Of a DNA stretch of 64,000 nt, positions 6,036-50,231 are shown piece by piece. Both the position numbers and the translations under genes were made by a program. Source of the DNA: a virus. Lineage: Duplodnaviria > Caudoviricetes. Within the stretch, counting starts at the first letter, position 1. Each line of letters starts with the position of its first letter. The stretch is from the IMG/VR virus record IMGVR_UViG_3300021255_001723, positions 6,576-70,575 of that record; one strand, 5' to 3'. The notes under the pieces were generated by a model. That model saw only the letters and a list, made by a program, of their open reading frames with translations, was not told the DNA's origin and did not search any database.

Positions 6036-6695
6036 ATGGAATTTTTCAAGACGATTGCAGATTTCCTGCAGGACGGCCAGCAACTTCAGATGGCCATCAG
6101 AAAGAGCGGCGAAAGCATTGCCGTTAGTATCATGCCCGACAATCGGGGTGTCAAGGATAAGGCCGTGGAGAACATCACTCCGTTGGTCATGAGCGGCACT
6201 CCCGAAGACTTCGAGGAGGGCTTCAAAGACGCTCTGAAGCCGCTGGCACAGGCACAGGGCTTAGTGTCTAACATCAAGGAGTTCGAGGAGAGCACAGAGA
6301 AAGCCAAGCGCGAGTCCGAAATGGCAAAGAAGCTGAAGGATGAAGCAGCCAAGCAGAAGAAGGAGTTCAACGACCTCATCGCCCTTGCTCGGAAGAACAA
6401 CGATGAGCACAAGTTCAAGGATGCTCGTGCCGTACTGGCCAAGGCTTCTGCTCTCCCATCGGCTGAGAAGGCCATCATCGACAAAGTGAGCAGGGAAATC
6501 GATGCTAAGAGCGGTGTCGGTAACATGTTCGGAGGCGAGGAAGATTTGTCGGACGGCAAGAACCTCACTCCTGGAGCAAAGCCTGCTGCTCCTACACCTG
6601 CCCCCAAGAAGGAGGAAGATGCGACGGCAGCTGCTTTCAAGAAAGCTATGGAATTAGAAGACAATGATGATAACGAAAACGAAGAGGAGGAGTAG
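6036..6695 (+). CDS. PRTRC system protein E
   Basis: N-terminal ...IAVSIMP...ITPLVMSGTPEDFEEGF domain followed by a low-complexity tail; cassette context. Confidence 0.8.
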   Translation: MEFFKTIADFLQDGQQLQMAIRKSGESIAVSIMPDNRGVKDKAVENITPLVMSGTPEDFEEGFKDALKPLAQAQGLVSNIKEFEESTEKAKRESEMAKKLKDEAAKQKKEFNDLIALARKNNDEHKFKDARAVLAKASALPSAEKAIIDKVSREIDAKSGVGNMFGGEEDLSDGKNLTPGAKPAAPTPAPKKEEDATAAAFKKAMELEDNDDNENEEEE

Positions 6696-6698
6696 GAT

Positions 6699-6911
6699 AT
6701 GGCACTTAACGTAACAGGAATGAAGCGTGTGTTCAAGTTCGGAACACGAGAGTTGGAAGACCCCGACAAGAACATGTCGCCTGACGAGGTGATGCAGTTC
6801 TATTCTGCCACCTATCCAGAGTTGACTACGAGTAACGTGCATGGCCCGAAGGTCGATGACAAGCAACGAGCGGTGTACGAGTTTAAGACAACGGTAGGAA
6901 CGAAAGGATGA
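6699..6911 (+). CDS. PRTRC system protein C (ubiquitin-like)
   Basis: RVFKF...LEDPD...SPDEVMQFYSATYPELTTS...YEFKTTVGTKG with C-terminal Gly. Confidence 0.9.
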   Translation: MALNVTGMKRVFKFGTRELEDPDKNMSPDEVMQFYSATYPELTTSNVHGPKVDDKQRAVYEFKTTVGTKG

Positions 6912-6918
6912 GTAAGTC

Positions 6919-8121
6919 ATGCAAATCCAAAGAGCGACGAGAGTTCCACAAGGCTTTGTATTCCATCTTGGAAAACGACCAAAGGCAGGGATATCAGGCA
7001 AGGGACGAGGAGCGGCAACCGCTGCTCCCGCCCTCTGCGCCCCTGCTTTTCTGACAACCAAGATTGAGTCGATACGACCTTCAGACGAAGATGCAGCAAG
7101 CAGGTTTGGCATTAACATCGGCAAGAGTTATGCTAATGTCCTTGCTTGCTGCAAGCGTTTTCTGAAAATCGCAAAACAGGATTTCGATTTCAAGCCGAAC
7201 GTCGGATTGGCAAAAAGTCAGATGCTCGGAGAATTGATTGACTACTTTGAGTCGAAGATAGAGCCTCTCGGATTGGAACTTGTTGTCAGAAAGAAGAACA
7301 GCCAAGACGAAGAAACTGATGTCTTGCAATGTGTTGTATATAGGCCGGGCTTGGAGTTTGAAGGTACAATCCTTATCCTATATTGCGCCCCTGCTGTGTA
7401 TATGTCTGCAGAAGGTTGTCAGATGTATAAGCGGTTTATGAAGTTTGTCTCTGACAGCATGAACATTCCTCTCGGTGCAGCTGACCATAGTGAGAACTTT
7501 TACCTCGATTGTATCATCAACATGTATGAGTACGAGGACTTCGGCCAGTACGGAGAAGATGAAGAGTTAGTGGTGAGGAACCATATTCTTGACAAGTATA
7601 AGCAGGACGGAGAGTTTTGGAATCTCTTCGATGAAATCAACTCGCTCCCTAAAGAAAGGCCGGAGGATTTGTATGAAGCTTTGGAGGAATACCGACATCA
7701 ATGCCCGATAGACGAAACCGAAATCGTGGAAGCTATGATGGAAGGTATCGACATTGTGAAGGATGCAAACTGCTATTGGTTTGAATTCAACCCAGACGAT
7801 GATGGTATGGAAGATGAGTATGGCAACTATGGTAGTGAGGGCTACGCAAGTAGTGTATTCGCTTCGGCCATCCTCTTTTCGGAGAATGACGGTATTACCG
7901 AAGCTATGCTTGACATGATAAATAACGAAGCTGATTCAGGTATGATGATTACAGGCTGGAATATTCATCAATGGCTGTCGCCAAAGATGAAGAAGGCTGA
8001 CATTCTCGAGTTTTTAAGATGCAAGGATTTGATTGCATCACTTAGCGAGTGGACGAATACATTGTACCGAGCAGTTGAAAAATTTGACTTATATGGCAAA
8101 TCTGAGCAAGATACTGAATGA
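6919..8121 (+). CDS. PRTRC protein F-like acidic protein
   Basis: Assigned by position between C and B in the cassette; no motif recognised. Confidence 0.45.
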   Translation: MQIQRATRVPQGFVFHLGKRPKAGISGKGRGAATAAPALCAPAFLTTKIESIRPSDEDAASRFGINIGKSYANVLACCKRFLKIAKQDFDFKPNVGLAKSQMLGELIDYFESKIEPLGLELVVRKKNSQDEETDVLQCVVYRPGLEFEGTILILYCAPAVYMSAEGCQMYKRFMKFVSDSMNIPLGAADHSENFYLDCIINMYEYEDFGQYGEDEELVVRNHILDKYKQDGEFWNLFDEINSLPKERPEDLYEALEEYRHQCPIDETEIVEAMMEGIDIVKDANCYWFEFNPDDDGMEDEYGNYGSEGYASSVFASAILFSENDGITEAMLDMINNEADSGMMITGWNIHQWLSPKMKKADILEFLRCKDLIASLSEWTNTLYRAVEKFDLYGKSEQDTE

Positions 8122-8791
8122 GAAGCTGGAGGCTACTGATGCGCTGGTATTTTATAAGAGCAACCTTAATGATGGTGCGTATGTAGAACATCGGTCAATC
8201 AGGAACGGAGCCATGTGCGCTGGCAGGCCTCTTGAAATAGACGTCATAGCAAAGTTGCTGAAGACGGTTGATAAGTATGCGCACGGAACCACGTCGATGG
8301 TCTCTCTTCACGGAGAGATACCTGAGAATTTGTTGTACGCCAGTACGAGTATCGACTCCTATAAGCTGGTTTGGTACAGGAAGCCGGAGAAGAGAATGTT
8401 TTATTTCTCGGAAAATCTCGGCATTCCCAACGGAGAGGTGTTAGTTCCTGGTCTTGTCTATGTGACGGACGGTAGAACATTATCGATGTATGCCTTCAAA
8501 GGCCAGAAGCCGAAGAGGCTGTTATATCAGGCACCCTTCTTTAATACTAACACTAACGTTTGCCTTGGTAGCGGAAAGTTGCCGAAGCCAAAGGATCAGA
8601 CCTACGCAAACTGGATGGGATATTGGGAAGAGTTGTTTTGGAGAACGGAGTTTTCACACCTTATGGGCGGCAATCCTGTGAAGGGCAACCTATCCATCAT
8701 AATGAAGGAGTGCATAAGCGGTCACAAGCCGTTTCCATTGAGTTCTCTGATAGCTATAAAGACAACCCTCCAATCACTATATAAGAAGTAG
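8093..8791 (+). CDS. PRTRC system protein B (prokaryotic E2 family D)
   Basis: LVWYRKP...VPGLVY...LYQAPFFNTNTNVCLG...WEELFWRTEFSH; start moved to ATG 8093. Confidence 0.85.
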   Translation: MANLSKILNEKLEATDALVFYKSNLNDGAYVEHRSIRNGAMCAGRPLEIDVIAKLLKTVDKYAHGTTSMVSLHGEIPENLLYASTSIDSYKLVWYRKPEKRMFYFSENLGIPNGEVLVPGLVYVTDGRTLSMYAFKGQKPKRLLYQAPFFNTNTNVCLGSGKLPKPKDQTYANWMGYWEELFWRTEFSHLMGGNPVKGNLSIIMKECISGHKPFPLSSLIAIKTTLQSLYKK

Positions 8792-8798
8792 AAGAACC

Positions 8799-9080
8799 AT
8801 GAGTAAAAAAACAATAGAACATGCTGCCAGTGTTCTGAAAGAAATCAAGGCAGAAGTAAACGAAGGTGTCATCAAGGACTACGAGATGCCGACTTTGTGT
8901 AATATGGAAACGGCACGCGATACAGGCTTTGCCGTTATCCTGACACTTAGCACCAAGTATGACTACACAAGCGCAGTGATCGACGACTGGCGCAAGCGAT
9001 TGGAGGCTGACGACTACATGATTAGCGTGAAGCGAAACCAACTTAGAATAAGATTTAACGTAATGTATAGCAAGAAATGA
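8799..9080 (+). CDS. hypothetical protein inside the PRTRC cassette
   Basis: ORF coupled by ATGA overlap to the ThiF gene. Confidence 0.7.
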   Translation: MSKKTIEHAASVLKEIKAEVNEGVIKDYEMPTLCNMETARDTGFAVILTLSTKYDYTSAVIDDWRKRLEADDYMISVKRNQLRIRFNVMYSKK

Positions 9081-9853
9081 AGTACAAGCATTTTGTTCAT
9101 CCCTACATCTTAGACCCTGCGCATCCGCTGACGATAGCCTTGATAGGTGCCGGCGGTACTGGCTCGCAGGTGTTGACCTCCCTCGGTAGGATGAATTACG
9201 CATTGAGGGAGTTGGGCCACCCTGGTCTTCATGTAAAAGTGTATGATGCAGACATCGTGACACCTGCCAACTGCGGCAGGCAGTTGTTCGCTCCGCAAGA
9301 GATCGGCCGGAACAAGGCTGAGGTGCTGACGACAAAGCTGAACATGTTCTTCGGAACGTCATGGGAGAGTATTCCCGAAATGTTCAATGAGAGTTCGGAG
9401 CAAGCGAACATCGTAATTTCCTGCGTCGATACGGTGGCTTCACGGCTTGCCATCGATAAGAACCTCGAATTTCCGAATAAGAGAGGCCTGAACGGCTACG
9501 ACATACAGGTGAATTACTACTGGCTGGACTTCGGTAACACGCAATCCACAGGACAGGTAATACTCGGAACTAAGCGGGATATCAGTCAGAACAAGAAGAA
9601 GACCGATGTTGGCAAGTTGCGCTGTGTGACAGACTTCTTCGACCTTAAAAAAGTCAAGGAGAAGGATAGTGGGCCAAGTTGCTCACTTGCGGAGGCCTTG
9701 ACCAAGCAGGACTTGTTCATCAACTCGACGCTTGCTCAAATCGGCATGGCTCTCTTGTGGAAGATGTTCACGAAGGGAGTGCTCGACATACAGGGCGCAT
9801 TCTTGAATCTCGACACAATGAAGGTAAACCCGATAAAGATTGAGAAGATATGA
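9077..9853 (+). CDS. PRTRC system ThiF family protein (E1-like)
   Basis: GAGGTGS nucleotide loop, D-x-D...NCGRQ, CVD, WLDFGN, GPSCSLAEAL. Confidence 0.92.
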   Translation: MKYKHFVHPYILDPAHPLTIALIGAGGTGSQVLTSLGRMNYALRELGHPGLHVKVYDADIVTPANCGRQLFAPQEIGRNKAEVLTTKLNMFFGTSWESIPEMFNESSEQANIVISCVDTVASRLAIDKNLEFPNKRGLNGYDIQVNYYWLDFGNTQSTGQVILGTKRDISQNKKKTDVGKLRCVTDFFDLKKVKEKDSGPSCSLAEALTKQDLFINSTLAQIGMALLWKMFTKGVLDIQGAFLNLDTMKVNPIKIEKI

Positions 9854-10584: not shown

Positions 10585-10983
10585 ATGAAGATTTATACAA
10601 GTTACTTCGCCAATTCAAGGGCTTTGAACAAGGCCGGTGTCATGCAAATCAGCATTGCACGATACTCGCCAAAGTGGTTCTACGGCCCACGATATACAGA
10701 TGTTGCACCTACTGGGTACATGCTCAGCAGCGTGTGCAGCCATGAGGAATACCTCAGAAAGTACGACGAGATTTTGAAGAAGCTCAATCCTCAATCCGTG
10801 GTTGCGGCTGTTGAGAAGATAGCCCAAGGTAAAGACGTTGCTCTTTGCTGCTACGAGAAGCCTGGCGATTTCTGCCATCGTCACCTCCTATCCGAATGGC
10901 TCAGGAAGAATGGCTACGATGTCAAGGAATGGGAGCCGGAGGAGAAGAAGAAACAGACGCAGCAGCTTTCGTTGTTTGATTAG
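10585..10983 (+). CDS. DUF488 family protein
   Basis: MKIYTSYF...ISIAR...VALCCYEKPGDFCHRHLLSEWL (LxCxE...CHR signature). Confidence 0.8.
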   Translation: MKIYTSYFANSRALNKAGVMQISIARYSPKWFYGPRYTDVAPTGYMLSSVCSHEEYLRKYDEILKKLNPQSVVAAVEKIAQGKDVALCCYEKPGDFCHRHLLSEWLRKNGYDVKEWEPEEKKKQTQQLSLFD

Positions 10984-11066: not shown

Positions 11067-11140
11067 GGATGGATAGCTCAGTTGGTCAGAGCACCTGTCT
11101 GTTAAACAGGGAGTCGGAGGTTCAAGCCCTTCTCCATCCG
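11067..11140 (+). tRNA. tRNA-Asn (GTT)
   Basis: Cloverleaf: GGATGGA/TCCATCC acceptor, CCTGT-CTGTTAA-ACAGG anticodon arm, TTCAAGC T-loop, G73. Confidence 0.85.
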
Positions 11141-11149
11141 CAGGTTGAA

Positions 11150-11241
11150 GTTCCAGTAGGGGCCTTGTGTATTCAAGGTGAGTAAAAGGAAGTTAGATGT
11201 TAATGCTAACAAGTATGCAGGTTCGAGTCCTGTCTGGAGCG
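11150..11241 (+). pseudogene. tRNA-like element with intact acceptor stem and T-arm but enlarged D region
   Basis: GTTCCAG/CTGGAGC, GCAGG-TTCGAGT-CCTGT, GTTAG/CTAAC stem with 9-nt loop. Confidence 0.5.
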
Positions 11242-11247
11242 AATACT

Positions 11248-11320
11248 TAGCAGTTAGCTCAGTTGGTAGAGCACCCGATAGATAATCGGGAGGTCATTGG
11301 TTCGAGTCCCTTACTGCGAA
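11248..11320 (+). pseudogene. Degenerate tRNA-Ile (GAT)
   Basis: Normal D-arm and CCCGA/TCGGG anticodon stem, but A33, two T-stem mismatches and one acceptor mismatch. Confidence 0.6.
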
Positions 11321-11322
11321 AC

Positions 11323-11395
11323 GCGGAAATAGCTCAGTTGGTAGAGCGTTATCTTCCCAAGATAAAGGCCGGAGGTTCGAGTCCTCCTTTCCGCT
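11323..11395 (+). tRNA. tRNA-Gly (CCC)
   Basis: GCGGAAA/TTTCCGC acceptor, U73, TTATC-TTCCCAA-GATAA, GGAGG-TTCGAGT-CCTCC. Confidence 0.88.
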
Positions 11396-11470
11396 CAGAG
11401 AGAGTATTTAGCCGTAGTGGAAACTCCCGAATAAACATGGAACGACATGAGTGTGAGAATCCCTCTTTAA

Positions 11471-11548
11471 CGCGGAGTAGAGCAGTGGTAGCTCGTCTGG
11501 CTCATAACCAGAAGGTCGTCTCAAACGGTTCGAATCCTGCCTCCGCAA
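11471..11548 (+). pseudogene. Initiator-type tRNA-Met (CAT) with disrupted, expanded T-stem
   Basis: C1:A72 mismatch, CTCATAA loop; GTCTCAAACGG replaces the 5-nt 5' T-stem strand. Confidence 0.6.
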
Positions 11549-11567
11549 CAAATCAAGATTTTTTGTA

Positions 11568-12647
11568 ATGAAAGTAGCAGTTATAGGAACGGGAAATGTA
11601 GGCATTGCCATAGCGGCAGACCTTTCCATCAGTGGTCATGAGGTGTCCTTGGTCAAAACATCCTCAGTAAAATCGAGTGCTTATGAGCGGTTGCTGGAGA
11701 ACGGCAATCGCGTTTATTTGAAAGAGGACGGTGCTTACACAGAGACCCATATCAGAGTAGTCACGAATTTGCTCAGCGAGATAGAACAGGCAGAGGTGGT
11801 GATCGTCACCATTCAGAGCATCTACCACGATGAGTTGTATAAGAACATCTGCCAGTACCTACGGGGAGAGCAGGTCGTTCTCATCATCTGCAGCTACATG
11901 TCGTCGTTCTACCTTGCCAAGTATTGCCAGGAGTTACCATCCATCGCTGAGGCCACAGGCCCATACCTTGAAGGACGTGTAGAGTTGGAGGACAAGCCGG
12001 GCCAGGTTGTGTTCCGTGTCGGTTGTAGGCTCACCAACAGCCCTCTGAGCGTGTTCCATGAGCATCGCAGGAAAGAAACCATTGAGAAGCTGAAATCCCT
12101 GTATGTGGGACTGAATGACAGCCTCTCGGTTATCGAGTCGGCTCTGCTCAACCCGAATTTGGTCATTCATACCTGCGGAGCCGTCATGAGCATCCCTCGC
12201 ATCGAATACAGCGACGGAAACTTCTGCATGTATCGTGAGGCTTATAGCCACAAGAACAAGGCCACGCTCAATGTGATGTTCAAGCTGGACGAGGAGAAGA
12301 AGAAAGTTCTGATAGCCCTCAATGCAAGAGCCATTGACATCTTGGAAGCCGGCGGTTTCCTCAAAGGTATGGAGAGCTTCTTTGAGTATTCGGAGTCGGA
12401 GGACAGGGCAATCAGTCCAACCTCCATTCATTCGAGATATATCATGGAGGACGTTTCGCAGGGATTGGTTCTGCTGGAGAGCATTGCCCATCACGTAGGT
12501 ATCGATGTGCCTGTCACCACTTCACTCATCGACCTTGCAGGAGCAGCCATAGGAGTTGATTTCAGAAAGGAGGGCAGGAGTATCTACTCGCTGGATGCCG
12601 TGAGATTTATTGACCATCTAACTGGAAGAAAGCATGGATGCCAATAG
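11568..12647 (+). CDS. NAD(P)-dependent opine (octopine/nopaline) dehydrogenase family protein
   Basis: VAVIGTGNVG Rossmann motif; LLNPNLVIH and HSRYIMEDVSQGLV motifs of the opine dehydrogenase C-domain. Confidence 0.88.
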   Translation: MKVAVIGTGNVGIAIAADLSISGHEVSLVKTSSVKSSAYERLLENGNRVYLKEDGAYTETHIRVVTNLLSEIEQAEVVIVTIQSIYHDELYKNICQYLRGEQVVLIICSYMSSFYLAKYCQELPSIAEATGPYLEGRVELEDKPGQVVFRVGCRLTNSPLSVFHEHRRKETIEKLKSLYVGLNDSLSVIESALLNPNLVIHTCGAVMSIPRIEYSDGNFCMYREAYSHKNKATLNVMFKLDEEKKKVLIALNARAIDILEAGGFLKGMESFFEYSESEDRAISPTSIHSRYIMEDVSQGLVLLESIAHHVGIDVPVTTSLIDLAGAAIGVDFRKEGRSIYSLDAVRFIDHLTGRKHGCQ

Positions 12648-14709
12648 CGACCTCAGAACAAGGACCTTCGGCATAGAGATTGAAATGTGCAATCTCGACA
12701 GACAGTTGGTGAAGCTGCCGGATGGTTACTCCTGGAGCAAGGAGGAGGAAATCGTGAATACCGACGGGTCGAGTAACAAGCGATTTGGTGGAGAGGTGAA
12801 CACCCCTCCACTCAATGTTTGTAGCCTAAAGGACTTGCATAGCCTTAAAGCCACATACGACTCGATGCGTGACGCTGGCGGTGTGATAAAATGGACCACC
12901 TATACGCACGTCCACATCTATGCAGGTGATCTGTCCGTCGAGCAGATAAAGAAAGTGTGGCTGTTCTTCTACATCTGCTATCCGTGGTGGAAGAGATACA
13001 CGAAACTCTCCGACTGGGATGAGAAAGTATTCAACTGCCAGCCTTTGCCGACGGAGAAGTACTACAATGGCCTGCTGGAGGCTCAGACATTCGAGGACAT
13101 CAATAAGCTGTTCACGAACCAGTCGAAGAAAGGCTTCATCCGACATGCCTGCAATATCTCAGCTTACTTCAAGACGAAGACGATAGAGTTTAGAACATAT
13201 CACGGAACGAGTGACTTCTATAAGGCCATGAACTGCGTCTATTCGACGTACAGAATGTTCTACTATGCCATAAATCATGAGTTGGATGATTTCTACTCCC
13301 TATCATCATACGATAAGTTCTGCAGCACCATCGGCCTCAAATGGGACACACCGCCAGAATTAGTGCCCCTCCTATACCAAGGCAACCCATACAGCGCCAT
13401 CGAGACATTTCAGACGAAATCCCTGCCGTATAACTCGAAGCAGGCATCAGCATTGTGGGAGGCCATCAAGAACCACGGCCATAAAGAACTTTGCATCGTG
13501 AATGGCTTCATGTACTACTATGAGCTGTTCTTTATGGATAAGGTGAAGGTGTCTATCTATGCGCAAGACCCGTACTGCCATCTGCTGTATATGCTTGCCA
13601 ACGGAAAGATAACCTTGAAATATAAGGAGAAGCTGTCATGGCTGGAGGATTTCAATGCTGACACCCCATCACGACAACTGGCATTGGCCCTGTATGCCGA
13701 GAAATTGCAGAAGTTCTCCATGAGTGATTCCAAGAGGAATGAAGCGGTTATTGAGTCCGTGAAGATGAGGGCCAAGGAATCAATCGAAAAGACTGAGAAG
13801 GCCTGCGAGAGGCTTCTGAAGCTACTTACCACCTGCGAATATCATATAGGCACCCTGCAGGATGCCATAGCTCAGAAGAGCGTGATATTCTTCAACTACG
13901 GCAAGGACAAGACACAGAAGCGCACGTTCAAGCTGATTGCCGAGAACTCTGATTTGGAAATGGAGTTCAATGTGAAGCGGAATGACTACTATGAGGTGAT
14001 AGAGACACTGCCGAAAGAGACATTCTTCTACTACTTCAGCAACAGCCCGTATCTGCGGAACATGCACAAGCTGGCCATGTGGAACTCGTCAAGCGGTGAG
14101 CGATGGTCAGCCGGACGTTTCCTCTACTGCAACAAGCCGAGTAGTCTGAACAAGGTAAGTACGTCGTATAAGTCGAACCATGTGGAGGTCAATGAGATCG
14201 TGCCTCCCGATGATTTGGTTATCGACAATCCCAACAGCCTAAAGATTGTTCGGGTCAGTTCCACTTGCCTGCATTGCCTGCAGAAGAAATACATCAAGAA
14301 AGTTGACCAGTGCAGCATGTGCACCTATGCCTTTGTCGTGATGTATGAGAAATATACGCTCGGTGGGTTCGGGTTCACCCTCCCACAACACAAGGGCTAC
14401 GACCTGTTCCAGCTGACGGACTTCTGTACGAACAACAATATCCCCCGTCTTGCAAAGCTGATATTGCTCTGCATTCAGACGACCGGAGTGCAGAAGGAAT
14501 TGAGCCGACGTATGCACAAGCTGTGCGAGAAGGTCATTTCCTGTGCCTACACGCACAAGCCTGTCAGTATGAAGTACAGAGGTGTCTATCAGAAGGTGAA
14601 GGAGCATTGCACCTCATCCTACCTTGCTTACGAAGGGCAGTTAGGCTTGTATGCCACCAACAAAGAAGTAATCGAGAAATATCAAAAAATGCTGAAGAAT
14701 GGTAAGTGA
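12634..14709 (+). CDS. Multidomain protein: N-terminal amidoligase (COOH-NH2 ligase), central unknown region, C-terminal probable GNAT/Mom-like domain
   Basis: RTFGIEIE, GGEVNTPP, HVHI, IEFRTYHGT for the amidoligase; C-terminal VVMYEKYTLGGFGF...CAYTHKPVSMKYRG, where the GNAT assignment is from memory and less certain. Confidence 0.7.
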   Translation: MDANSDLRTRTFGIEIEMCNLDRQLVKLPDGYSWSKEEEIVNTDGSSNKRFGGEVNTPPLNVCSLKDLHSLKATYDSMRDAGGVIKWTTYTHVHIYAGDLSVEQIKKVWLFFYICYPWWKRYTKLSDWDEKVFNCQPLPTEKYYNGLLEAQTFEDINKLFTNQSKKGFIRHACNISAYFKTKTIEFRTYHGTSDFYKAMNCVYSTYRMFYYAINHELDDFYSLSSYDKFCSTIGLKWDTPPELVPLLYQGNPYSAIETFQTKSLPYNSKQASALWEAIKNHGHKELCIVNGFMYYYELFFMDKVKVSIYAQDPYCHLLYMLANGKITLKYKEKLSWLEDFNADTPSRQLALALYAEKLQKFSMSDSKRNEAVIESVKMRAKESIEKTEKACERLLKLLTTCEYHIGTLQDAIAQKSVIFFNYGKDKTQKRTFKLIAENSDLEMEFNVKRNDYYEVIETLPKETFFYYFSNSPYLRNMHKLAMWNSSSGERWSAGRFLYCNKPSSLNKVSTSYKSNHVEVNEIVPPDDLVIDNPNSLKIVRVSSTCLHCLQKKYIKKVDQCSMCTYAFVVMYEKYTLGGFGFTLPQHKGYDLFQLTDFCTNNNIPRLAKLILLCIQTTGVQKELSRRMHKLCEKVISCAYTHKPVSMKYRGVYQKVKEHCTSSYLAYEGQLGLYATNKEVIEKYQKMLKNGK

Positions 14710-15403
14710 AGACAGATGGAAGTACGATAAGGTTGACATCAACCTCATCGACGAGGCAGAAATGAATGCCAACGAAATGACGGGTGAAGACTTCGCCACG
14801 CTGTGTGACAACATCGGCAAGTCCGGCCTAAGCAGTGTCCCATGCTGCTACAAGAAAGAGAATGGCAGGTATGTGATGATTAGCGGCCATCATCGTTTGA
14901 GGGCCTGCAAGAAGTTACACTATGCCAAGCTGGGCATCCTATGGTGTTTGGAAAGCGAACTGAGCAAGGATGAGATTATCGCCATCCAGCTCTCGCATAA
15001 CTCGCTTCACGGGCAGGATAACACGAGTATCTTGAAGAAGTTGTTTGAACAAATCCAGTCGGTTGACTTCAAGAAGTTCGCCCACATCAATATCGATGAG
15101 GTTGCTCCAGTCAGTACGGACGGCATTAGCGTGTTCGCTCTGAAGGAGAACTTCGTGTTTACGATTATCCTCTACCCAAATTCGTTCGAGAACCTGGATG
15201 AGTTGTACGGAGATATTCGTGAACAGGCTAAGAAGAGTGATACGCTCATCCTTGCGCATCAGGAGGACAATGAAATGGCTCTGCTGAAGCTGCAGCAGGA
15301 CATCGGCAACCAGTTCAATATCAAGTCGCCATCCATCACCTTTGCTAAGCTGCTGGAACTGGCTAAGGAGAGACTTGACGAAATCAAGGAGGATAAGGCA
15401 TGA
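14699..15403 (+). CDS. ParB/Srx N-terminal domain protein
   Basis: NANEM...LCDNIGKSG...YVMISGHHRLRAC. Confidence 0.85.
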   Translation: MVSEDRWKYDKVDINLIDEAEMNANEMTGEDFATLCDNIGKSGLSSVPCCYKKENGRYVMISGHHRLRACKKLHYAKLGILWCLESELSKDEIIAIQLSHNSLHGQDNTSILKKLFEQIQSVDFKKFAHINIDEVAPVSTDGISVFALKENFVFTIILYPNSFENLDELYGDIREQAKKSDTLILAHQEDNEMALLKLQQDIGNQFNIKSPSITFAKLLELAKERLDEIKEDKA

Positions 15404-16266
15404 TTTGGACGATAGTAAGTAAGGCCGAAATGGAAGGATATGCTATCCCTCCTGTCTTCCAGTACTACCGAGAGGTTGTAGGCAGGGAGAATATCAGACT
15501 GGCCGTAGTGGATGAGGACGACCCTCTCGACTTCGTTGGGGAGAAGGACATAGTTCTGCTTCGTACTGCGAGCAGGTCCCTCATTGAGACGATAGAGGCA
15601 AAGGGTGTGGCCACTACGGCAGAGCATTATTCGGTATATCAGCAGGCAAGTGATAAGGCAGAACTGGCAAGGCTCTTGTGTGAGCATGGAATCAAGGTGC
15701 CGAGGCAATATAGCATTGACCATCTTCAGCCTGGAAGCACGTATTTTGTCAAGCCACGCTTCGGCAGCGAGAGTTTTGGCATAACGGAGCACAACATCTG
15801 CCATAGCAAGGAAGATGTGAAGTTCCAGGTTATGAGATTGCAGGAGTTGGGCTACGAGAGTGTCATTGAGGACTTCATAGAAGGCAATGACGCGACTGTT
15901 GCCTGCTATTATGACCCTCAAAGCGATAGGGTATGTGCCCATGCTATTGCCGTTGACTGCGAGACGAAGGGTGCCATTCAGACGCACAAGGGCAAGTTCG
16001 ACTACAACGAATATTGCTATGCCTTGAAAGGATCGATAGGCAAGAAGGCTTGCGCCATGAGTAAGTATGTTTTCGACCTCCTTGGTATCAGACACCATGC
16101 AAGGATAGACTTCCGCTTCACGGAGAATGGTGAGGTGTATCTCATTGACGTGAACCTGCTGCCCGGCCTTGGACCATCAGCGCACTTCTCAAAGTGCCTG
16201 CTCTTGACGGAGAATATCTCCTACGTTGACACCATTATGAACATTTTGAAATCAGCAACGAAATGA
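15400..16266 (+). CDS. ATP-grasp ligase (D-Ala-D-Ala ligase-like)
   Basis: SDKAEL, FVKPRFGSESFGI, IEDFIEG, ARIDFR, LIDVNLLPG. Confidence 0.88.
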   Translation: MIWTIVSKAEMEGYAIPPVFQYYREVVGRENIRLAVVDEDDPLDFVGEKDIVLLRTASRSLIETIEAKGVATTAEHYSVYQQASDKAELARLLCEHGIKVPRQYSIDHLQPGSTYFVKPRFGSESFGITEHNICHSKEDVKFQVMRLQELGYESVIEDFIEGNDATVACYYDPQSDRVCAHAIAVDCETKGAIQTHKGKFDYNEYCYALKGSIGKKACAMSKYVFDLLGIRHHARIDFRFTENGEVYLIDVNLLPGLGPSAHFSKCLLLTENISYVDTIMNILKSATK

Positions 16267-16601
16267 AGAATATACCGATAGAGAAGATTATTCAGATTTA
16301 TGAGAAGAAGGGTTGCAATATCACGGCAACCTGTACTGCGCTCGGTATCTCCCGAAAGACCTTCTACGAATGGAAGGAGAAGAAGAAGAAACTCGCTGAA
16401 GGACTGGAGGCTGCTGAGGAGGCTATCATAGACTTCGCGGAGTCCAAGTTGGTTGAGCATATCAATAACGATGATGTGCAGGCTTTGATATTCTTCCTCC
16501 GAACCAAGGGCAAGAAGCGAGGCTATGTCGAGAAGACCGAGACCGACGTGAACATCAACCAGTTCGAGAAATTGATGCAAGATACCGAGGACGACGAGTA
16601 A
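16263..16601 (+). CDS. Terminase small subunit
   Basis: HTH NITATCTALGISRKTFYEW, then ALIFFLRTKGKKRGYVE; directly upstream of TerL. Confidence 0.8.
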   Translation: MKNIPIEKIIQIYEKKGCNITATCTALGISRKTFYEWKEKKKKLAEGLEAAEEAIIDFAESKLVEHINNDDVQALIFFLRTKGKKRGYVEKTETDVNINQFEKLMQDTEDDE

Positions 16602-18113
16602 ATGGTTCAAAACGATAAGTGGCAGAAGAAGATGAAAGCGTGGAGGAAAGACTGGTGCCTGTTCGCCAAGCAAGTTCTCCATGCTCGTCTCGATGAGGAA
16701 CAGAAGGCCATCCTGCGTGCCGTACAGAACGAGCGCATGGTGGCCGTTGCTTCGGGTACGGCCCGAGGCAAAGACTATATTGCCGCTGTCGCTTGTCTTT
16801 GTTTCATGTACCTCACTCCTCGATGGAAGGACGGGAAGCTGATTAAGAACACCAAGATTGCCATGACAGCCCCTACCGACCGACAGGTAAGGAATATCAT
16901 GGTGCCGGAGGTCAGACGTTTATACAAGGCAGCTCAGGTGCTGCCTGGCCGATTGGTGGGCTATGACATACGAACGAACTATGAGGAATGGTTCTTGACG
17001 GGCTTCAAGTCGAGTGCGGACAACACGGAGGCATGGTCGGGTTTCCATGCTGTCAATACGATGTTCGTTGTCACGGAGGCATCGGGTATCTCGGAAACCA
17101 TTTACAATGCCATCGAGGGTAACTTGCAGGGTAACTCTCGTCTGCTGATAGTGTTCAACCCCAACATCACTACTGGCTATGCAGCCAAGGCCATGAAGTC
17201 GGCACGTTTCAAGAAATTCCGTCTCAACTCCCTGCACGCTGAGAACGTGGTTCGCAAGGAGAATGTGATACCAGGCCAAGTTGACTACGAATGGGTGAAG
17301 GATAAGGTTGAGAACTGGTGCATCCGCATCCGAAAGGAAGATGTCAACGAGGGTGAGGGCGACTTCGAATGGGAAGGCCAATGGTACCGACCAAACGACC
17401 TTTTCCGTGTCAAGGTGCTCGGAATGTTCCCGAAGGTTGCAGAGGATGTCCTTATCCCATACGAATGGGTGGAACTGGCAAACAGGCGCTGGGAGGAACT
17501 GCAAGAGGAAGAATTTGAGCCGAAGAAGAAATGCCGCCTCGGTGTCGATGTTGCCGGAATGGGTCGTGATGCTTCAGTTCTTTGCCCGAGATACGGGAAC
17601 TACGTTGAAAAGTTTGAGGTGCATAACTCTGCTGGTGTGGCAGACCACATGCACGTCTGCGGAATGACAATTCCTTATCTCAAGAAGAAAGGTGCCAAGG
17701 CGTTCGTTGACACCATTGGCGAAGGTGCAGGGGTATTCTCTCGGCTTAGGGAATTGAACTACCAGAACGCTTATTCCTGTAAGTTCTCTGAGGGTACGAG
17801 AAACCTGCATGATGTCACGGAGGTTTACACCTTTTCGAATATGCGTGCTTATTTGTATTGGGCGGTTAGGGACTGGCTAAACCCGAAGAATGGCTTTCAA
17901 CCTGCATTGCCTCCTAACGATTTGCTGTTGCAGGAATGTACCGATGTGCATTGGAAGTTTCAGAGTTCAGGTGATATTCTCATTGAATCGAAAGATGAGA
18001 TAAAGAAACGCCTCGGAAGGTCGCCGGACTACCTCGATGCTCTGGCTAACACCTTCTATCCGAGAGACTACGAAGCAATCCAAGAAAGCGAACTTTTCAA
18101 AGATTTTCTTTGA
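16602..18113 (+). CDS. terL: Terminase large subunit
   Basis: VASGTARGKD Walker A-like motif, VVTEASG Walker B, nuclease motifs LGVDVAGMGRD and RSPDYLDALA. Confidence 0.92.
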   Translation: MVQNDKWQKKMKAWRKDWCLFAKQVLHARLDEEQKAILRAVQNERMVAVASGTARGKDYIAAVACLCFMYLTPRWKDGKLIKNTKIAMTAPTDRQVRNIMVPEVRRLYKAAQVLPGRLVGYDIRTNYEEWFLTGFKSSADNTEAWSGFHAVNTMFVVTEASGISETIYNAIEGNLQGNSRLLIVFNPNITTGYAAKAMKSARFKKFRLNSLHAENVVRKENVIPGQVDYEWVKDKVENWCIRIRKEDVNEGEGDFEWEGQWYRPNDLFRVKVLGMFPKVAEDVLIPYEWVELANRRWEELQEEEFEPKKKCRLGVDVAGMGRDASVLCPRYGNYVEKFEVHNSAGVADHMHVCGMTIPYLKKKGAKAFVDTIGEGAGVFSRLRELNYQNAYSCKFSEGTRNLHDVTEVYTFSNMRAYLYWAVRDWLNPKNGFQPALPPNDLLLQECTDVHWKFQSSGDILIESKDEIKKRLGRSPDYLDALANTFYPRDYEAIQESELFKDFL

Positions 18114-18975: not shown

Positions 18976-19269
18976 ATGGAGATTAAGATGGAGTTAACCC
19001 CGATTATGAAGCAATACTTCGATTTGAAGAAGAAACACCCAGACGCCTTGTTGCTGTTCAGACGCGGCGACTTTTACGAGGTCTTCGAAGATGACGCTGC
19101 AGATGCAGCTCGCATTCTGGGAATCACTCTCACAAAGCATCGCAGAGGATATAGGCTCGCAGCTTTTCCACATCATGCGCTCGACATATATTTGCCGAAG
19201 TTAGTAAGGGCAGGTAGGAGAGTAGCTATCTGCGAACAGCTGGAAGCACCTAAGAGGAGTCAGAGCTAA
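18976..19269 (+). CDS. Stand-alone MutS domain I (mismatch-binding) protein
   Basis: TPIMKQY...[30 protein letters not shown]...[25 protein letters not shown]. Confidence 0.9.
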
Positions 19270-21561: not shown

Positions 21562-21718
21562 GTGTGGAGAGTGCGCCAATGTAACGCTTGTTACCATCTT
21601 CCATACCCTCAGCATTAAAGGAGAACCGACGATGGGCGAGTGTCCTTACTGGACGCAATCCAAATGTGTGTTGCTGAGTCAGAAAGCATGTGTTAAACAT
21701 TTCAAGAAGAGGGAATAA
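21521..21718 (+). CDS. small Cys-rich hypothetical protein
   Basis: CGEC...ECP...C...C; ATG within AGAGCAATGAAG. Confidence 0.6.
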   Translation: MKKESNKKPVVTHKCGECANVTLVTIFHTLSIKGEPTMGECPYWTQSKCVLLSQKACVKHFKKRE

Positions 21719-21719
21719 C

Positions 21720-24287
21720 ATGGCAAAGCCTAAAGGTATCAATCAGAAAGCCAAGTGGCGAGAGCACTCCATCCGTCTTGCAAGATATGCGGATAGAGTG
21801 CAGTCTGTTTATGATACCTTGAACAAGGAGGTTGCAAAGTCTGTTGTTAAGACAGGCTATGACGGGGCAAAGCCGTTTAGATTCTCCGACTATCCTGAAA
21901 CTAAGAAGATGTTTGAAGATGTGCAGGCTTCTTTCGTCCGTGACCTCCGAGCAGTCGTTTATGGTGGAACAAATGCAGAGTGGCATGAGAGTAATCTTGT
22001 TCAGGATCTGCTTGCCGACAAGGTTTTGAAATTCTACGGCAGCAAGGCAGGAGGTAGAAAACACAGGGTTTACTATCAGACTAATTCGGATGTGCTGAAG
22101 GCTTTCCAGGAGCGAAAGGACAAAGGTATGAATTTGTCGCAAAAGCTATGGAATCAGTCCAAGGAGTATAAGACGGAGATGGAGTATGCTATCTCTTCTG
22201 CAATCGAGAAGGGCACAAGCGCAGTAACTCTCTCAAAGCGGTTGAGTAAATATCTTGTCGATTTTCCATCCCTAAAGCATGATTACAAGGAGAAGTTCGG
22301 CAAGGCAGTGACATGCCAGGACTGCGAATTTCGTTCCATCCGTCTTGCTCGGTCGGAGATAAACATGGCATACAGGACAGCAGAACAGGAACGCTGGAAG
22401 CAGTTCGATTTCGTATTAGGCTATGATGTGAAACTCACCCAGAACCTCCGTCATGTGCCGGACATCTGCGACGACCTTGCAGGCAAGTACCCGAAGGACT
22501 TTGTTTTCAAGGGCTGGCACCCTAACTGCATGTGCTATGTTATCCCCATTCTCAAAACCGAAGAGCAGTTTTGGAATGATGAAGACGTATCGGAAATCGT
22601 CGAGCCTCCTAAGAACTTTACCGACTGGCTGGAGTCCAATGCCGAACGTATCGATAAGGCTGCTGGGAAGGGCACGCTTCCTTATTGGTATGCGGATAAT
22701 GGAAAGTATGTAGATACTATACGATGGAAGAATTTCCGTATGCTCGATGAATATGATCGTCGAGATTATGAAAGAGTGCAAAAATGGAAGGAAGGTCTCG
22801 GACTGAAGACTGACAACCTGGAGAAATTGCTGACTACAAAAGATGTTGAAGACTGGAAGATCAGCGGAGAGTTGATGGAACTCACTTCTCGTATTGATAG
22901 GGCCAAGCAGCATTACATGGACGAATGGAAGAAGATGTATGAGCGGATAGAAAGCGACGAGGTACATAACGGTTACGACAGGGGCTTCATACGGAAACTG
23001 CGTGACAGACTATCTGCTGCCAGCAGCGGTTTGAGTTACGATGTGCGGATGTCGTGGGCACAACTGAAGAGCATTGAGGATTTGATTGCTGGCTATGATA
23101 AGGAGTTGGTTGATGTCGTTGTCCCGTCGTTCCCCTTGAAGTCAGCCGGCTTCGGTACTATCACCCATGATGTTGGTAGAGTACGTGACCAACTCAATGC
23201 TTTGGTAGGAACGGCTCGCAAGGACCATTACCGCTTCTTGGATTTTCGTGACCACTTCGACCACATGGCAACGACTGGCAAGATGAATGACACCATACGT
23301 CAGAAGTTCGTGGAAATGCTTGACCGTGATGAGGGTGCGGTATGGAAGTGCATCGACCACCTCAATGAGATTGCCAATGCCTCGGACTTGGATAAGATAC
23401 CCAGGCGATGGTATCGCGCCTTCAATAAGTACATGGAGGAAATCAGAGCCTTTGACATCGAGACGAACGGTTATGGTGGTGTGTATAGGCAGATTGAGGG
23501 TGCTTACAACATCTATAAACTATCCACAATGCCGGAGGTAGCGAAATATGGACTGAGTAAGGTTAATGACAAAATGCCTTGGAATTTGTTCGAGGTCTTC
23601 AAGGAGAAGGGTATCGACTACAAGTACTTGCCTGACAGCCTGATGTTCCGCAACGAAGGAGATTTTGTGCCCTGGTATGATACTATCAGGCAGAACAAGA
23701 AAGGTACATTCAACATCTATAGCAGTGCCCACCACTCGAGTGAGTTCGGTCATGTAGCCATCAACAGGGCATTCTTTGACCAGACATATGGTAGGTGTGC
23801 GAATAACATGCCTCAGGCTTCGAGGATATTCTACCATGAATACGGACATGCCTTAGATGCCCAGAGGGACTGGAGTACGAAGAAGAGGATAAAGGCCCTG
23901 TTCGACAAATATGAAGCCAAATATAGCGCGATGGATGAGACGGAGCTGGAGAACAAGTTCTTAAAGACTTCGTTTGATCAATGGAAAGATACTCCTTTCT
24001 TCAAGGAAATGAAGGAAGACCCAGCGCACAACGAGAGGTGTATCGCCTTCTCCGATGTGCTGCAGGGATTCATGAAGTCTCACAAGAAGATTTTCGGTGG
24101 CCATGACATTGCCTACATGCAGAGCCGTGCTAACGCAATGGCAGAGTTCATCGCGCACATGAATGAGGTGTACTGGCAGGGCAACAAGTTCTGGGAGGCA
24201 TTCGACAAGGAGTTCTATGAAGAGGTTCGCTCTATCATGCGAGTCGCATTCAGGGGAAACAAGGAAGCGCTAAATAAAGTGAAATAG
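21720..24287 (+). CDS. MuF/SPP1 gp7-like minor head protein with C-terminal zincin-like metallopeptidase extension
   Basis: RLARSEINMAYRTA...DICDDLAGKYPK...WHPNCMC (MuF); C-terminal FYHEYGHALD (HExxH) and AMAEFIA. Confidence 0.8.
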   Translation: MAKPKGINQKAKWREHSIRLARYADRVQSVYDTLNKEVAKSVVKTGYDGAKPFRFSDYPETKKMFEDVQASFVRDLRAVVYGGTNAEWHESNLVQDLLADKVLKFYGSKAGGRKHRVYYQTNSDVLKAFQERKDKGMNLSQKLWNQSKEYKTEMEYAISSAIEKGTSAVTLSKRLSKYLVDFPSLKHDYKEKFGKAVTCQDCEFRSIRLARSEINMAYRTAEQERWKQFDFVLGYDVKLTQNLRHVPDICDDLAGKYPKDFVFKGWHPNCMCYVIPILKTEEQFWNDEDVSEIVEPPKNFTDWLESNAERIDKAAGKGTLPYWYADNGKYVDTIRWKNFRMLDEYDRRDYERVQKWKEGLGLKTDNLEKLLTTKDVEDWKISGELMELTSRIDRAKQHYMDEWKKMYERIESDEVHNGYDRGFIRKLRDRLSAASSGLSYDVRMSWAQLKSIEDLIAGYDKELVDVVVPSFPLKSAGFGTITHDVGRVRDQLNALVGTARKDHYRFLDFRDHFDHMATTGKMNDTIRQKFVEMLDRDEGAVWKCIDHLNEIANASDLDKIPRRWYRAFNKYMEEIRAFDIETNGYGGVYRQIEGAYNIYKLSTMPEVAKYGLSKVNDKMPWNLFEVFKEKGIDYKYLPDSLMFRNEGDFVPWYDTIRQNKKGTFNIYSSAHHSSEFGHVAINRAFFDQTYGRCANNMPQASRIFYHEYGHALDAQRDWSTKKRIKALFDKYEAKYSAMDETELENKFLKTSFDQWKDTPFFKEMKEDPAHNERCIAFSDVLQGFMKSHKKIFGGHDIAYMQSRANAMAEFIAHMNEVYWQGNKFWEAFDKEFYEEVRSIMRVAFRGNKEALNKVK

Positions 24288-48668: not shown

Positions 48669-48697
48669 GAAAGACGGGGATTATTCCTCGTCTTTTC
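48669..48697. terminator. Bidirectional terminator
   Basis: GAAAGACGGGGA-TTA-TTCCTCGTCTTTTC between convergent genes. Confidence 0.7.
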
Positions 48698-50231
48698 TTG
48701 AAATCACACATCTGATTTTATGAAAATCATTATAGTTTTCTCCATTTTTAGAGCACAAACCTTCTGAAGATATTTTATATAAATAAGGTGTGGATGATGT
48801 CCACCATTCACCAAATTCATACCAAGGTAGGGATCCGTCTACACCGCATGACAGGGGCATTAAGATACTGTTACCGTTAGGCCCCGTAAACTTACAGTAG
48901 GTGCTATCCGATTCACAGTCACTTCCATATAAATTATAACTAAACGTTCCTTTTTTGATTATCTCTTTCGTACAGTATTCATCCAGTTCTTCAAACTGAC
49001 TTATTGTTGGAAGAGTAAAACAACCATCCGCAGTTGGATATGTAACGTTCATTTCTTTAGAATTTTTTAAATTAGGCAAATTCTCGTCAAGGTAAGCAAA
49101 GCAATTTTTTATATTACCATAATAGAATAAAAGTCCGTAATCCTTTTCTTCTTTAGTTCCTAAATCCATGTCAGCCCATAGTGTACCTGACGGTAATCCC
49201 AAATCAACGGCATTGGGCATAGGATATTCTACACTATTGATGGTATATGAAGTCATATATTCTTCGGTAGGTGCAGGAGCTGGAGTTTCGTTTTCCAATA
49301 ATGGGCGCACCGGTCGCACGGGAAGTCCAACCCACCTATCACCACCTTCCATATCTACCTTAAAAACAGTTTTGTTATTTACGGTTTCAGAAGACTTGAA
49401 TAATAGAAACGTAGTAGGTTTATATTGATTTGAAATATCATAAATATCAATATCATTATAATTATCGGAAAAATCCTCAACCTCATTCTCCCAATATTTT
49501 CCATATATTGTAAACAGCTTGTAGTTGCCAGAGATTTCATTTGTCCAAAAAGATAATTGGTCATCACAGTAAGAAAAACTAGCATTATCAATAGCTACAC
49601 AAAAAGGTATATCTATGTATTTCCCGTTCCGGCTTATTCTATAAAATTTATTTTCACCGTCAGAAATAATATTAATATCGCAATAGTTTATCAGTTCTAT
49701 AAAGTCCGCATAACTGGGTATTCGCCAAGGTTCTCCTAAATTAGCAGTTGCAGCATCATCTGATTTCATTAATTTTGATAAATTGTCTATGGTTCCAAAG
49801 ATTTCATTTAATACATATTTTGAAAAAAGACAATGACTCCATTGGTCTGCTTCACTATAATTGGGATTTTTTCCCGCAGTGAAAATATATGTATCAGGAG
49901 TGTATGTCTTTTTATTTTTTGTCTCTCCCCACGCAAAACACAGACCATGTTCTAACGGTTTGCTTGCTCCAATATTCATATTCGCCCACTTCGTACCAGA
50001 TGGCAAACCTAAATCCACGGCTTCAGGCATTGGATATTCCACGCCATTAATAGTGTAGCTCGTCTTTGCTTCTTCCGCAGTCTTTTCTTCAAACTCTACG
50101 GTCTTCACCGTATCCATTCCGAAGACAACGGATTTCCCGTCGTTGAAGGTAATGCGCATATTATGTGTTGCCTGAGCACTAGCAGTAACAGCTACAGTGG
50201 TTAAAAGGAGGGTGGAAAATATCTTTTTCAT
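48681..50231 (-). CDS. Moron: secreted protein with two VDLGLPSGT.WA repeat domains
   Basis: Signal peptide MKKIFSTLLLTTVAVTASA; duplicated SYTINxVEYPMPxAVDLGLPSGT.WA; AT-rich. Confidence 0.75.
   Translation of the reverse strand: MKKIFSTLLLTTVAVTASAQATHNMRITFNDGKSVVFGMDTVKTVEFEEKTAEEAKTSYTINGVEYPMPEAVDLGLPSGTKWANMNIGASKPLEHGLCFAWGETKNKKTYTPDTYIFTAGKNPNYSEADQWSHCLFSKYVLNEIFGTIDNLSKLMKSDDAATANLGEPWRIPSYADFIELINYCDINIISDGENKFYRISRNGKYIDIPFCVAIDNASFSYCDDQLSFWTNEISGNYKLFTIYGKYWENEVEDFSDNYNDIDIYDISNQYKPTTFLLFKSSETVNNKTVFKVDMEGGDRWVGLPVRPVRPLLENETPAPAPTEEYMTSYTINSVEYPMPNAVDLGLPSGTLWADMDLGTKEEKDYGLLFYYGNIKNCFAYLDENLPNLKNSKEMNVTYPTADGCFTLPTISQFEELDEYCTKEIIKKGTFSYNLYGSDCESDSTYCKFTGPNGNSILMPLSCGVDGSLPWYEFGEWWTSSTPYLYKISSEGLCSKNGENYNDFHKIRCVISRKDEE

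Follow-up and report, generated by a model that had tools for sequence, protein, structure and literature searches.

What pathway is encoded by a set of opine dehydrogenase, ligase, acyltransferase and ParB-N genes lying directly upstream of the terminase genes of a tailed phage? The question is raised by an operon at positions 11568-18113 of a 64,000-nucleotide stretch of DNA (the window), which covers positions 6,576 to 70,575 of the IMG/VR virus record IMGVR_UViG_3300021255_001723. An earlier note, made from the letters alone, had proposed that this operon attaches an opine- or peptide-like group to a DNA base at packaging. We find that the system is real, conserved and uncharacterised, and is probably a variant of tRNA-dependent DNA hypermodification. 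The reading that we prefer, and to which we give somewhat better than an even chance, is post-replicative glycylation of a DNA base from Gly-tRNA, the glycyl group then being extended by a variable glutamate- or opine-type group. The basis of this reading is the gene content of the locus, the folds of its products, the intact ligase motifs, the features of the tRNA genes, and the co-occurrence and allele co-segregation of the genes among relatives.

Six open reading frames (ORFs) lie on the plus strand at the positions that had been claimed for them (Table 1), with overlaps of 14, 11, 4 and 4 nucleotides at successive junctions and no gap between TerS and TerL, again as claimed. The calls of opine dehydrogenase (ODH), amidoligase, GNAT, ParB-N, ATP-grasp, TerS and TerL are borne out by Pfam and PHROG. 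The two-domain picture of an amidoligase/GNAT-like fusion does not survive, since a middle domain of the DAM-like-phage2 family is also present, although both of the named domains are there. Likewise the unit to which the six genes appear to belong does not begin with ODH, as a gene for a DUF488-N3a protein and a tRNA cluster precede it. Three parts had thus been overlooked: the DUF488-N3a gene, the fold in the middle of the fusion, which is Dam-like but has no catalytic motifs, and a gene for tRNA-Gly upstream of the enzymes.

An AlphaFold model of the fusion protein (pLDDT 76.5) contains three folds, comprising residues 1-240, 261-503 and 529-672. The whole fusion gave no Foldseek match at E<=0.001, and a sequence profile search of PDB returned spurious ubiquitin matches only. 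The first fold, the amidoligase, has YbdK as its best match in the VIA fold search (1tt4, Z 11.0, root-mean-square deviation (rmsd) 3.6, 211 aligned residues). Its motifs are intact (GxExE at 13-17, E54, H92-x-H94, R170 and E185-x-R187), and among 24 homologs of 22-74% identity E15, E17, H94, R170, E185 and R187 are invariant and E54 nearly so. The domain has the GhExE motif, acidic core-strand residues, HxH, Arg finger and ExR of the carboxylate-amine ligase (GS/GCS) superfamily, as defined for amidoligases in PMC2588565; amidoligases of such fold usually activate the gamma-carboxylate of glutamate (same source).

The second fold is of the Dam class (7m6b, Z 9.8; EcoDam 2ore, Z 9.3; T4Dam, Z 8.9; DpnM, Z 8.8). 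An active Dam methylase is ruled out by the absence of the catalytic motifs: FxGxG (motif I) and (D/N/S)PP(Y/F) (motif IV) are missing, and the expected sites read VNGFMYY and FFNYG, neither of which is conserved among the 24 homologs. This domain is probably a DNA-binding or base-flipping module. Remnants of the S-adenosylmethionine-binding region and of motif IV (F.G, CsGnF and f.Pt) are retained in unfused relatives that consist of Dam-like and GNAT domains (loci L112-L167) and lost in the amidoligase fusions; a capping function of the methylase fold may there have passed to the ligase. Two prophages carry the fusion gene as two ORFs, with a separate amidoligase in one (L108) and a break within the amidoligase in the other (L111). 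A complex prediction for the amidoligase domain with the ATP-grasp protein scored 0.00 and is not used as evidence.

The third fold is a GNAT domain, which we propose, by analogy with Mom of phage Mu, to be a Gly-tRNA-dependent transferase. D596, K608, S645, the KYRG motif at 647-650 and Y666 are invariant in 52 sequences, and D596, S645 and KYRG are also kept in the 24 fusion homologs. A model of the GNAT domain by itself (pLDDT 95) has Mu Mom as its first-ranked match in VIA (8bv8, Z 10.6, rmsd 3.2, 137 aligned residues), in a tie with generic GNATs; in the VIA search with the model of the fusion, FemA ranks far below Mom. At a threshold of E 0.1 neither the fusion nor either of two unfused relatives matches the PADLOC models of Druantia, a comparison that may miss remote homology to its DruA-type GNAT. 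Mom glycylates the N6 of adenine with Gly-tRNAGly as donor (PMC13219725; Silva et al. 2026) and modifies 15-25% of deoxyadenosines only. The resemblance to Mom comprises a GNAT fold that ranks it first, though tied, among solved structures, a late-gene setting and an implied glycine tRNA donor. In contrast, Mom works alone with a host tRNA, whereas the GNAT here shares its polypeptide with an amidoligase and a Dam-like fold and is accompanied by ParB, DUF488, a phage tRNA-Gly and tailoring enzymes.

The candidate donor is encoded beside these enzymes. Unfiltered ARAGORN output places tRNA genes between DUF488 and the enzyme genes in most loci, with Gly calls predominating. An initial loose tRNA pattern was rejected, as it gave mostly chance matches. 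Gly-acceptor tRNA-like genes number 163 within -1600/+400 nucleotides of the GNAT gene against 3 in the remaining 1.82 Mb of the same loci (many of which are near-clones). They are found at the module in Bacteroidota and in prophages of Planctomycetota, Chloroflexota, Acidobacteriota and deltaproteobacteria, and in the last four groups the neighbouring protein has the Dam-like and GNAT domains only. Mycobacterium phage Jeon has an annotated tRNA-Gly that abuts the homologous gene, and Gordonia phages Clawz and Sting have an unannotated copy in the same place. In two close relatives (L003 and L005) the operon has no Gly tRNA, and a strong match, going by its score of 73-74 bits, to the model that also finds the second tRNA-Gly of the window (Table 1) is present elsewhere in the genome.

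These tRNA genes combine a fixed acceptor end with an unusual body. Of 40 distinct copies, 34 have GCG/CGC and U73 at the acceptor end, a proportion that is partly selected by the filter, although unfiltered ARAGORN calls are mostly Gly too. Anticodons are TCC in 13 copies, ACC in 8, CCC in 3, GCC in 2 and drifted in 14; several copies have anticodon loops of 6 or 8 nucleotides, and several have non-Gly anticodons. G51-C63 occurs in 1/40 and the combination of G49U65 with G51C63 in none, whereas host Bacteroidales tRNA-Gly, read by eye from a pattern that left the T-stem unconstrained, have G51-C63 in 97/97 rows and ACC in 0/97. Both tRNA-Gly copies in the window have A51-U63. At the level of sequence, the family therefore has the marks of a non-proteogenic tRNA-Gly, namely retained identity elements for glycyl-tRNA synthetase (GlyRS) and a weak EF-Tu T-stem in place of G49-U65/G51-C63, and it looks poorly suited to ribosomes. 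Staphylococcal non-proteogenic donor tRNAGly also carry A51-U63 (PMC7826273). Like the phage copies they keep synthetase identity alongside a weak EF-Tu T-stem and feed GNAT-fold transferases (FmhB-FemAB); unlike them, they serve peptidoglycan as the acceptor, and the phage-borne copies are far more degenerate, with polyphyletic anticodons. The neighbouring tRNA-Asn and tRNA-Ile-like genes are probably not donors. At 11067-11549 and in the relatives L001-L006 homologous tRNA-like genes share one scaffold but change freely between Ile, Ser, Asn and Arg anticodons, next to an fMet-like gene with a broken T-arm. In six loci, mostly deltaproteobacterial prophages (L139, L150, L152, L156, L159 and L161), tRNA-like RNAs of 80-97 nucleotides with a Gly acceptor end and an expanded anticodon region lie beside Dam-like/GNAT genes.

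The earlier note would have been weakened had these genes failed to recur with ParB and terminase in other phages, but they do recur. The order DUF488-[ODH]-fusion-ParB-grasp-TerS-TerL is found in essentially all of 80 IMG/VR loci in which the fusion is 61-98% identical, at one locus of ~45% identity, and in Bacteroidota prophages; all ATP-grasp-bearing viral loci long enough to judge contain the module. DUF488-N3a is the conserved first gene, present upstream at almost every locus, those of distant relatives and of actinophages among them, and ParB-N is the universal partner of the GNAT gene across the loci surveyed. By analogy ParB-N is a probable activator or clamp: ParB activates a phage DNA-modifying enzyme in the case of ParB-dependent T-dioxygenases (PMC13229309), and ParB-terminase loci with DNA methylases have been described (PMC4738411; Iyer et al. 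2016). Those loci share with the present one an orphan ParB next to a DNA-modifying fold and terminase, but here the methylase fold lacks catalytic motifs and the predicted chemistry is acyl transfer and amide ligation rather than methylation or oxidation.

Coupling of the module to terminase is common, not universal. The abutment of TerS and TerL is not conserved, with 1-3 inserted ORFs in many relatives, and such common inserts rule out an obligatory TerS-TerL coupling. Other TerL types lie beside the module in two loci (L007 and L015), and the minimal modules of the cultured phages Jeon, Clawz and Sting are not directly beside an annotated terminase. Action at packaging is thus not a requirement. 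Searches of cultured phages by tblastn gave no match for the fusion or the ATP-grasp and three weak, unannotated matches for ODH, so that with these three queries no cultured phage carrying the full operon turned up.

The remaining enzymes form an exchangeable cassette. ODH aligns over its full length with CENDH (PDB 1bg6, E 8e-17), with the histidine in NPNLVIH and the aspartate in EDVS falling on the CENDH His/Asp pair, which is catalytic. It has the Rossmann and PF02317 domains of the opine dehydrogenase family, and the His and Asp are conserved in 48 homologs. In some phages ODH and ATP-grasp are replaced by an AlaDh-fold protein homologous to lysine-ketoglutarate reductase (LKR)/saccharopine dehydrogenase, which matches the N-terminal domain of AASS (PDB 8dda, E 6e-32). 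The LKR fold is unrelated to that of ODH and forms the same reductive amine-ketoacid bond. Unlike CENDH and AASS, the phage enzymes are interchangeable cassettes within a modification operon. At least one tailoring enzyme is present at 105/105 amidoligase-fusion loci and at 0/42 amidoligase-less loci, counting loci with enough flank. The sets at the 105 loci are ODH with ATP-grasp (73), ATP-grasp alone (16), LKR (8) and a fold-III pyridoxal phosphate (PLP) enzyme with or without a GNAT (acetyltransferase) or ATP-grasp (8); a PLP enzyme that resembles racemases is present in some loci.

Diversification of the ATP-grasp, a tailoring enzyme, is rapid, and its alleles go with those of the amidoligase domain and with the presence or absence of ODH. 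Among 61 closely related gut-phage loci it occurs as three alleles X/Y/Z (57% and 37% identical). The amidoligase domain, ~2 kb away, follows these alleles with a minimum of 2 tree changes, whereas GNAT, ParB-N, TerS, TerL and DUF488 need 7-19, and the intervening GNAT and ParB-N 7-13. This linkage despite recombination in between points to selection for a matched pair, which could reflect a shared intermediate or physical contact. ODH accompanies alleles X/Y at 48/48 loci and allele Z at 0/13; its presence needs 1 change on the ATP-grasp tree against 7-10 on the GNAT, TerS, TerL and DUF488 trees (near the shuffled mean of ~10.7), and the ATP-grasp sequences without ODH form a single clade that spans three phage backgrounds. 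A role for ODH as a stand-alone metabolic gene is ruled out by its tie to the ATP-grasp alleles. One module has two tandem ATP-grasp genes (L096:9760-11440). In one sample a second strain differs at ~5% of sites at 15466-16279, over the ATP-grasp gene, while the long contigs on either side match the window exactly.

We envisage the following sequence of events. Host GlyRS would charge the phage tRNA-Gly, whose weak EF-Tu-type T-stem would keep it largely off ribosomes. As suggested by Mom, the dead Dam-like fold would bind DNA, perhaps with help from ParB, and the GNAT would transfer glycine to a base amine, most likely adenine N6. The least certain step is ATP-driven: in it the fused amidoligase might couple the glycyl amine to a carboxylate, which would probably be the gamma-carboxylate of a glutamate that carries a decoration. 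That carboxylate would be made or finished by ATP-grasp and ODH and, elsewhere, by LKR, the PLP enzyme or the acetyltransferase, and a swap of cassettes would yield another adduct, which is what an arms race with host nucleases would lead one to expect. The gamma-carboxylate of glutamate is the group that amidoligases of this fold usually activate, and an opine formed from 2-oxoglutarate is a glutamate substituted on its nitrogen. On these grounds the simplest product that the ODH, LKR and ATP-grasp cassettes could share is a decorated glutamyl group; this is a guess, to which we would give perhaps one chance in three. It is also possible, though somewhat short of an even bet, that in a widespread phage family a privately encoded, ribosome-excluded tRNA-Gly primes DNA bases on which exchangeable ligase cassettes under diversifying selection then build combinatorial peptide/opine adducts. 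Abundant Bacteroidales phages of the gut would in that case run an assembly line on their DNA, with a chemistry that differs from allele to allele.

Several observations weigh against the glycylation scheme. The fold match to Mom is tied with generic GNATs (Z 10.1-9.8, within 1 Z unit), and sequence homology to Mom is not detected, hhalign giving a probability of 0.2% for the 52-sequence profile against single-sequence Mom; Pfam and PHROG scans contain no Mom family match. R111, S124, D149 and R151 are essential in Mom. By motif inspection, as distinct from a residue-level alignment, the place of R111 seems to hold the invariant D596, and that of S124 to vary between S and A. The helix-turn-helix (HTH)-like insertion that Mom needs for activity (about residues 175-209) also seems absent, since 144 model residues span 204 Mom residues in the structural match, a comparison of ranges that leaves no space for it. 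Given the tie and the negative profile comparison, the GNAT may act like Mom yet is not assigned to the Mom family. The tRNA-Gly(CCC) of the window is otherwise near-canonical, and a Gly tRNA was detected in just 15/26 distant fusion loci and 10/44 amidoligase-less loci. The contrast in tailoring enzymes between fusion and amidoligase-less loci is confounded by taxonomy and by the use of hidden Markov models from Bacteroidota proteins. Linkage to packaging is usual in Bacteroidota and absent in Jeon, and timing rather than mechanistic coupling may account for it. The genome still avoids GATC (observed/expected 0.13), CTAG (0.03) and GGWCC (0.28); with such avoidance persisting, protection can be no more than partial, in line with incomplete modification of the kind seen in Mu and not with blanket protection. 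Finally, the glycyl amine is consumed by rearrangement in Mom, so the ligase would have to outcompete this reaction or act on another group.

The last difficulty would be avoided if the amidoligase, ATP-grasp and ODH elaborated glycine on the private tRNA, or built a free donor, and the GNAT then moved the finished group to DNA in one step. A tRNA withheld from EF-Tu could act as a scaffold for this, and the co-segregation of ligase and ATP-grasp is compatible with either order. Nevertheless we consider it unlikely: a GNAT that accepted differing finished donors would be expected to track the cassette alleles, which it does not (11-13 changes versus 2), favouring tailoring after glycyl transfer, and the ligase is fused to a DNA-binding fold. 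Slightly less likely still is that the targets are proteins (terminase, virion or host) tagged with glycine and a gamma-glutamyl or opine group, in the manner of L/F-transferases, PafA or RimK-like ligases. Protein-modifying members exist in all three ligase/transferase folds (PMC2588565), and the module genes overlap TerS; on the other hand, all full-length members have the GNAT and a Dam-class fold in one protein, an orphan ParB is the constant neighbour, the minimal module of Jeon has no adjacent terminase, and no conserved small substrate ORF was seen.

There is a slim chance that DNA receives a simple Mom-like glycine adduct or end processing and that ODH, ATP-grasp and amidoligase make a separate diffusible small molecule (a signal, a metallophore or the product of a metabolic moron). 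Enzymes of the ODH and ATP-grasp families often serve in small-molecule pathways, and minimal modules without any of the three enzymes exist at 42 loci. Against this, even homologs of as little as 22% identity have the amidoligase covalently joined to the Dam-like/GNAT protein, the accessory genes are seen only with the amidoligase fusion, and no transporter or receptor gene is adjacent. The Fem-type A51-U63 tRNA-Gly, the Ddl-like ATP-grasp and the racemase-like PLP enzyme might point to a FemX-like alteration of side chains in the host peptidoglycan, by which superinfection would be excluded or lysis controlled, but this is very improbable in view of the DNA-related partners (Dam fold and ParB), the presence of the same core in hosts with very different envelopes and the low rank of FemA. 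Equally improbable is an ordinary translational or anti-defence tRNA in an incidental position beside an acyl-CoA-dependent GNAT, as the other tRNAs of the cluster, the normal anticodon loop of Gly(CCC) and the targeting of tRNAGly by some defence toxins (PMC11559606) are set against a constant Gly acceptor end combined with 6/8-nucleotide loops and with ACC or non-Gly anticodons, the lost G51-C63 pair and a position that is closely kept across phyla. DNA modification with an opine- or peptide-like group, the core of what had been proposed, hence stands as the best-supported reading through the Dam-class fold, the GNAT that ranks Mom first (though tied) and the genetic linkage of ODH, ATP-grasp and amidoligase; what it had left out is the likely donor tRNA-Gly, the Dam-like domain and DUF488.

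Table 1. Genes and domains of the module in the window, with further tRNA genes.
Feature	Coordinates	Strand	Evidence and remarks
DUF488-N3a protein, predicted-active subclade	10585..10983	+	Pfam PF22751 E 2e-11
tRNA-Asn(GTT) and two degenerate tRNA-Ile-like genes	11067..11322	+	ARAGORN; anticodons differ among close relatives
tRNA-Gly(CCC), proposed glycyl donor	11323..11396	+	GlyRS acceptor identity G1-C72, C2-G71, G3-C70, U73; T-stem A51-U63
tRNA-Met(CAT), degenerate, initiator-like, T-arm disrupted	11471..11549	+	ends 18 nt upstream of ODH start
CENDH-like enzyme of the opine dehydrogenase family (tailoring, optional)	11568..12647	+	Octopine_DH PF02317 E 3e-26
Three-domain fusion, whole ORF	12634..14709	+	
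Fusion domain 1, amidoligase	12634..13353	+	PF12224 Amidoligase_2 E 1e-14; glutamine synthetase/gamma-glutamylcysteine ligase fold
Fusion domain 2, Dam-class fold	13414..14142	+	DAM-like-phage2 PF22556 E 2e-94
Fusion domain 3, phage GNAT-fold acyltransferase	14218..14649	+	GNAT-phage-like PF22559 E 3e-40
Orphan ParB-N, SGHHR motif	14699..15403	+	Pfam weak; PHROG ParB-like E 2e-11
Ddl-like ATP-grasp ligase	15400..16266	+	E 6e-13; K86, K118, E157, R235, D237, N252 invariant
TerS	16263..16601	+	phrog_309 E 2e-11
TerL	16602..18113	+	phrog_2 E 9e-32; neighbour, no obligatory module part
Second atypical tRNA-Gly(TCC), tail region	31603..31675	+	A51-U63, UGC T-loop; 77 bits; same type as relatives' operon tRNAs

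The source of the window is best read as a temperate Prevotella siphophage from the rumen. The virus record of 70,575 nucleotides contains genes for an integrase (58907-60121 of the window) and for portal, major head and tail, a Prevotella metagenome-assembled genome (L088) encodes a counterpart of 98% identity to the fusion protein, and DNA near-identical to the window is present in gut and bovine gut metagenomes. The GC content of the module and its GC content at third codon positions resemble those of neighbouring genes, which rules out a recent or foreign insertion. A metatranscriptome of the sample that gave the best DNA run has low-depth contigs in 25/30 operon bins, where DNA carry-over is possible, and expression is not claimed; a scan for sigma-70 promoters and terminators, with a model ill-suited to Bacteroidota, was at chance level. 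Across the whole genome there is strong avoidance of CTAG, GATC, CCGG, CGCG, GGWCC and several 6-bp palindromes.

Other regions of the window also have unusual content. Upstream of the module (6036-9853) is a PRTRC-like cassette, retained in the six closest relatives only, with genes that we take to be E, C and F, an E2-like B protein (PF14460) and ThiF (PF00899). A stand-alone protein of 97 amino acids (18976-19269; phrog_8439, function unassigned in PHROG) presumably resembles the N-terminal mismatch-binding part of MutS. A MuF-type head morphogenesis protein of 865 amino acids (21690-24287) continues C-terminally in a long extension of no assigned family, which could be a polyvalent or an effector domain. 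A low-GC gene pair on the minus strand (48681-50626), likely lysogenic conversion genes, encodes a 516-amino-acid protein that has no family match and a 132-amino-acid protein that carries a type IX secretion sorting domain.

The core of the module belongs to an already predicted phage nucleic-acid-modifying neighbourhood, as DUF488-N3a (PF22751), DAM-like-phage2 (PF22556) and GNAT-phage-like (PF22559) all score above cut-off, with ParB adjacent. These families were reportedly defined by Burroughs and Aravind in 2023, in NAR Genom Bioinform, who are said to have predicted a nucleic-acid-modifying system. The description of the pathway as undescribed is thus too strong for DUF488-N3a, Dam-like and GNAT, which are already Pfam phage families, and apt in that no experimental paper was found: our literature search, which did not reach the contents of Burroughs and Aravind 2023, gave neither an experimental study nor a report of private tRNA-Gly or amidoligase-opine cassettes. 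If the glycylation reading is true, tRNA-dependent DNA modification would extend from stand-alone Mom to a modular multi-step pathway that yields new nucleosides in common gut and rumen phages, odd phage tRNA-Gly genes would be explained as acyl donors, and three uncharacterised Pfam families would gain a testable function. Differing adduct masses are predicted for the alleles that occur in nature (ATP-grasp X/Y/Z, ODH present or absent, or LKR), and the core step is open to direct test in cultured phages (Mycobacterium cluster W, and Gordonia Clawz and Sting).

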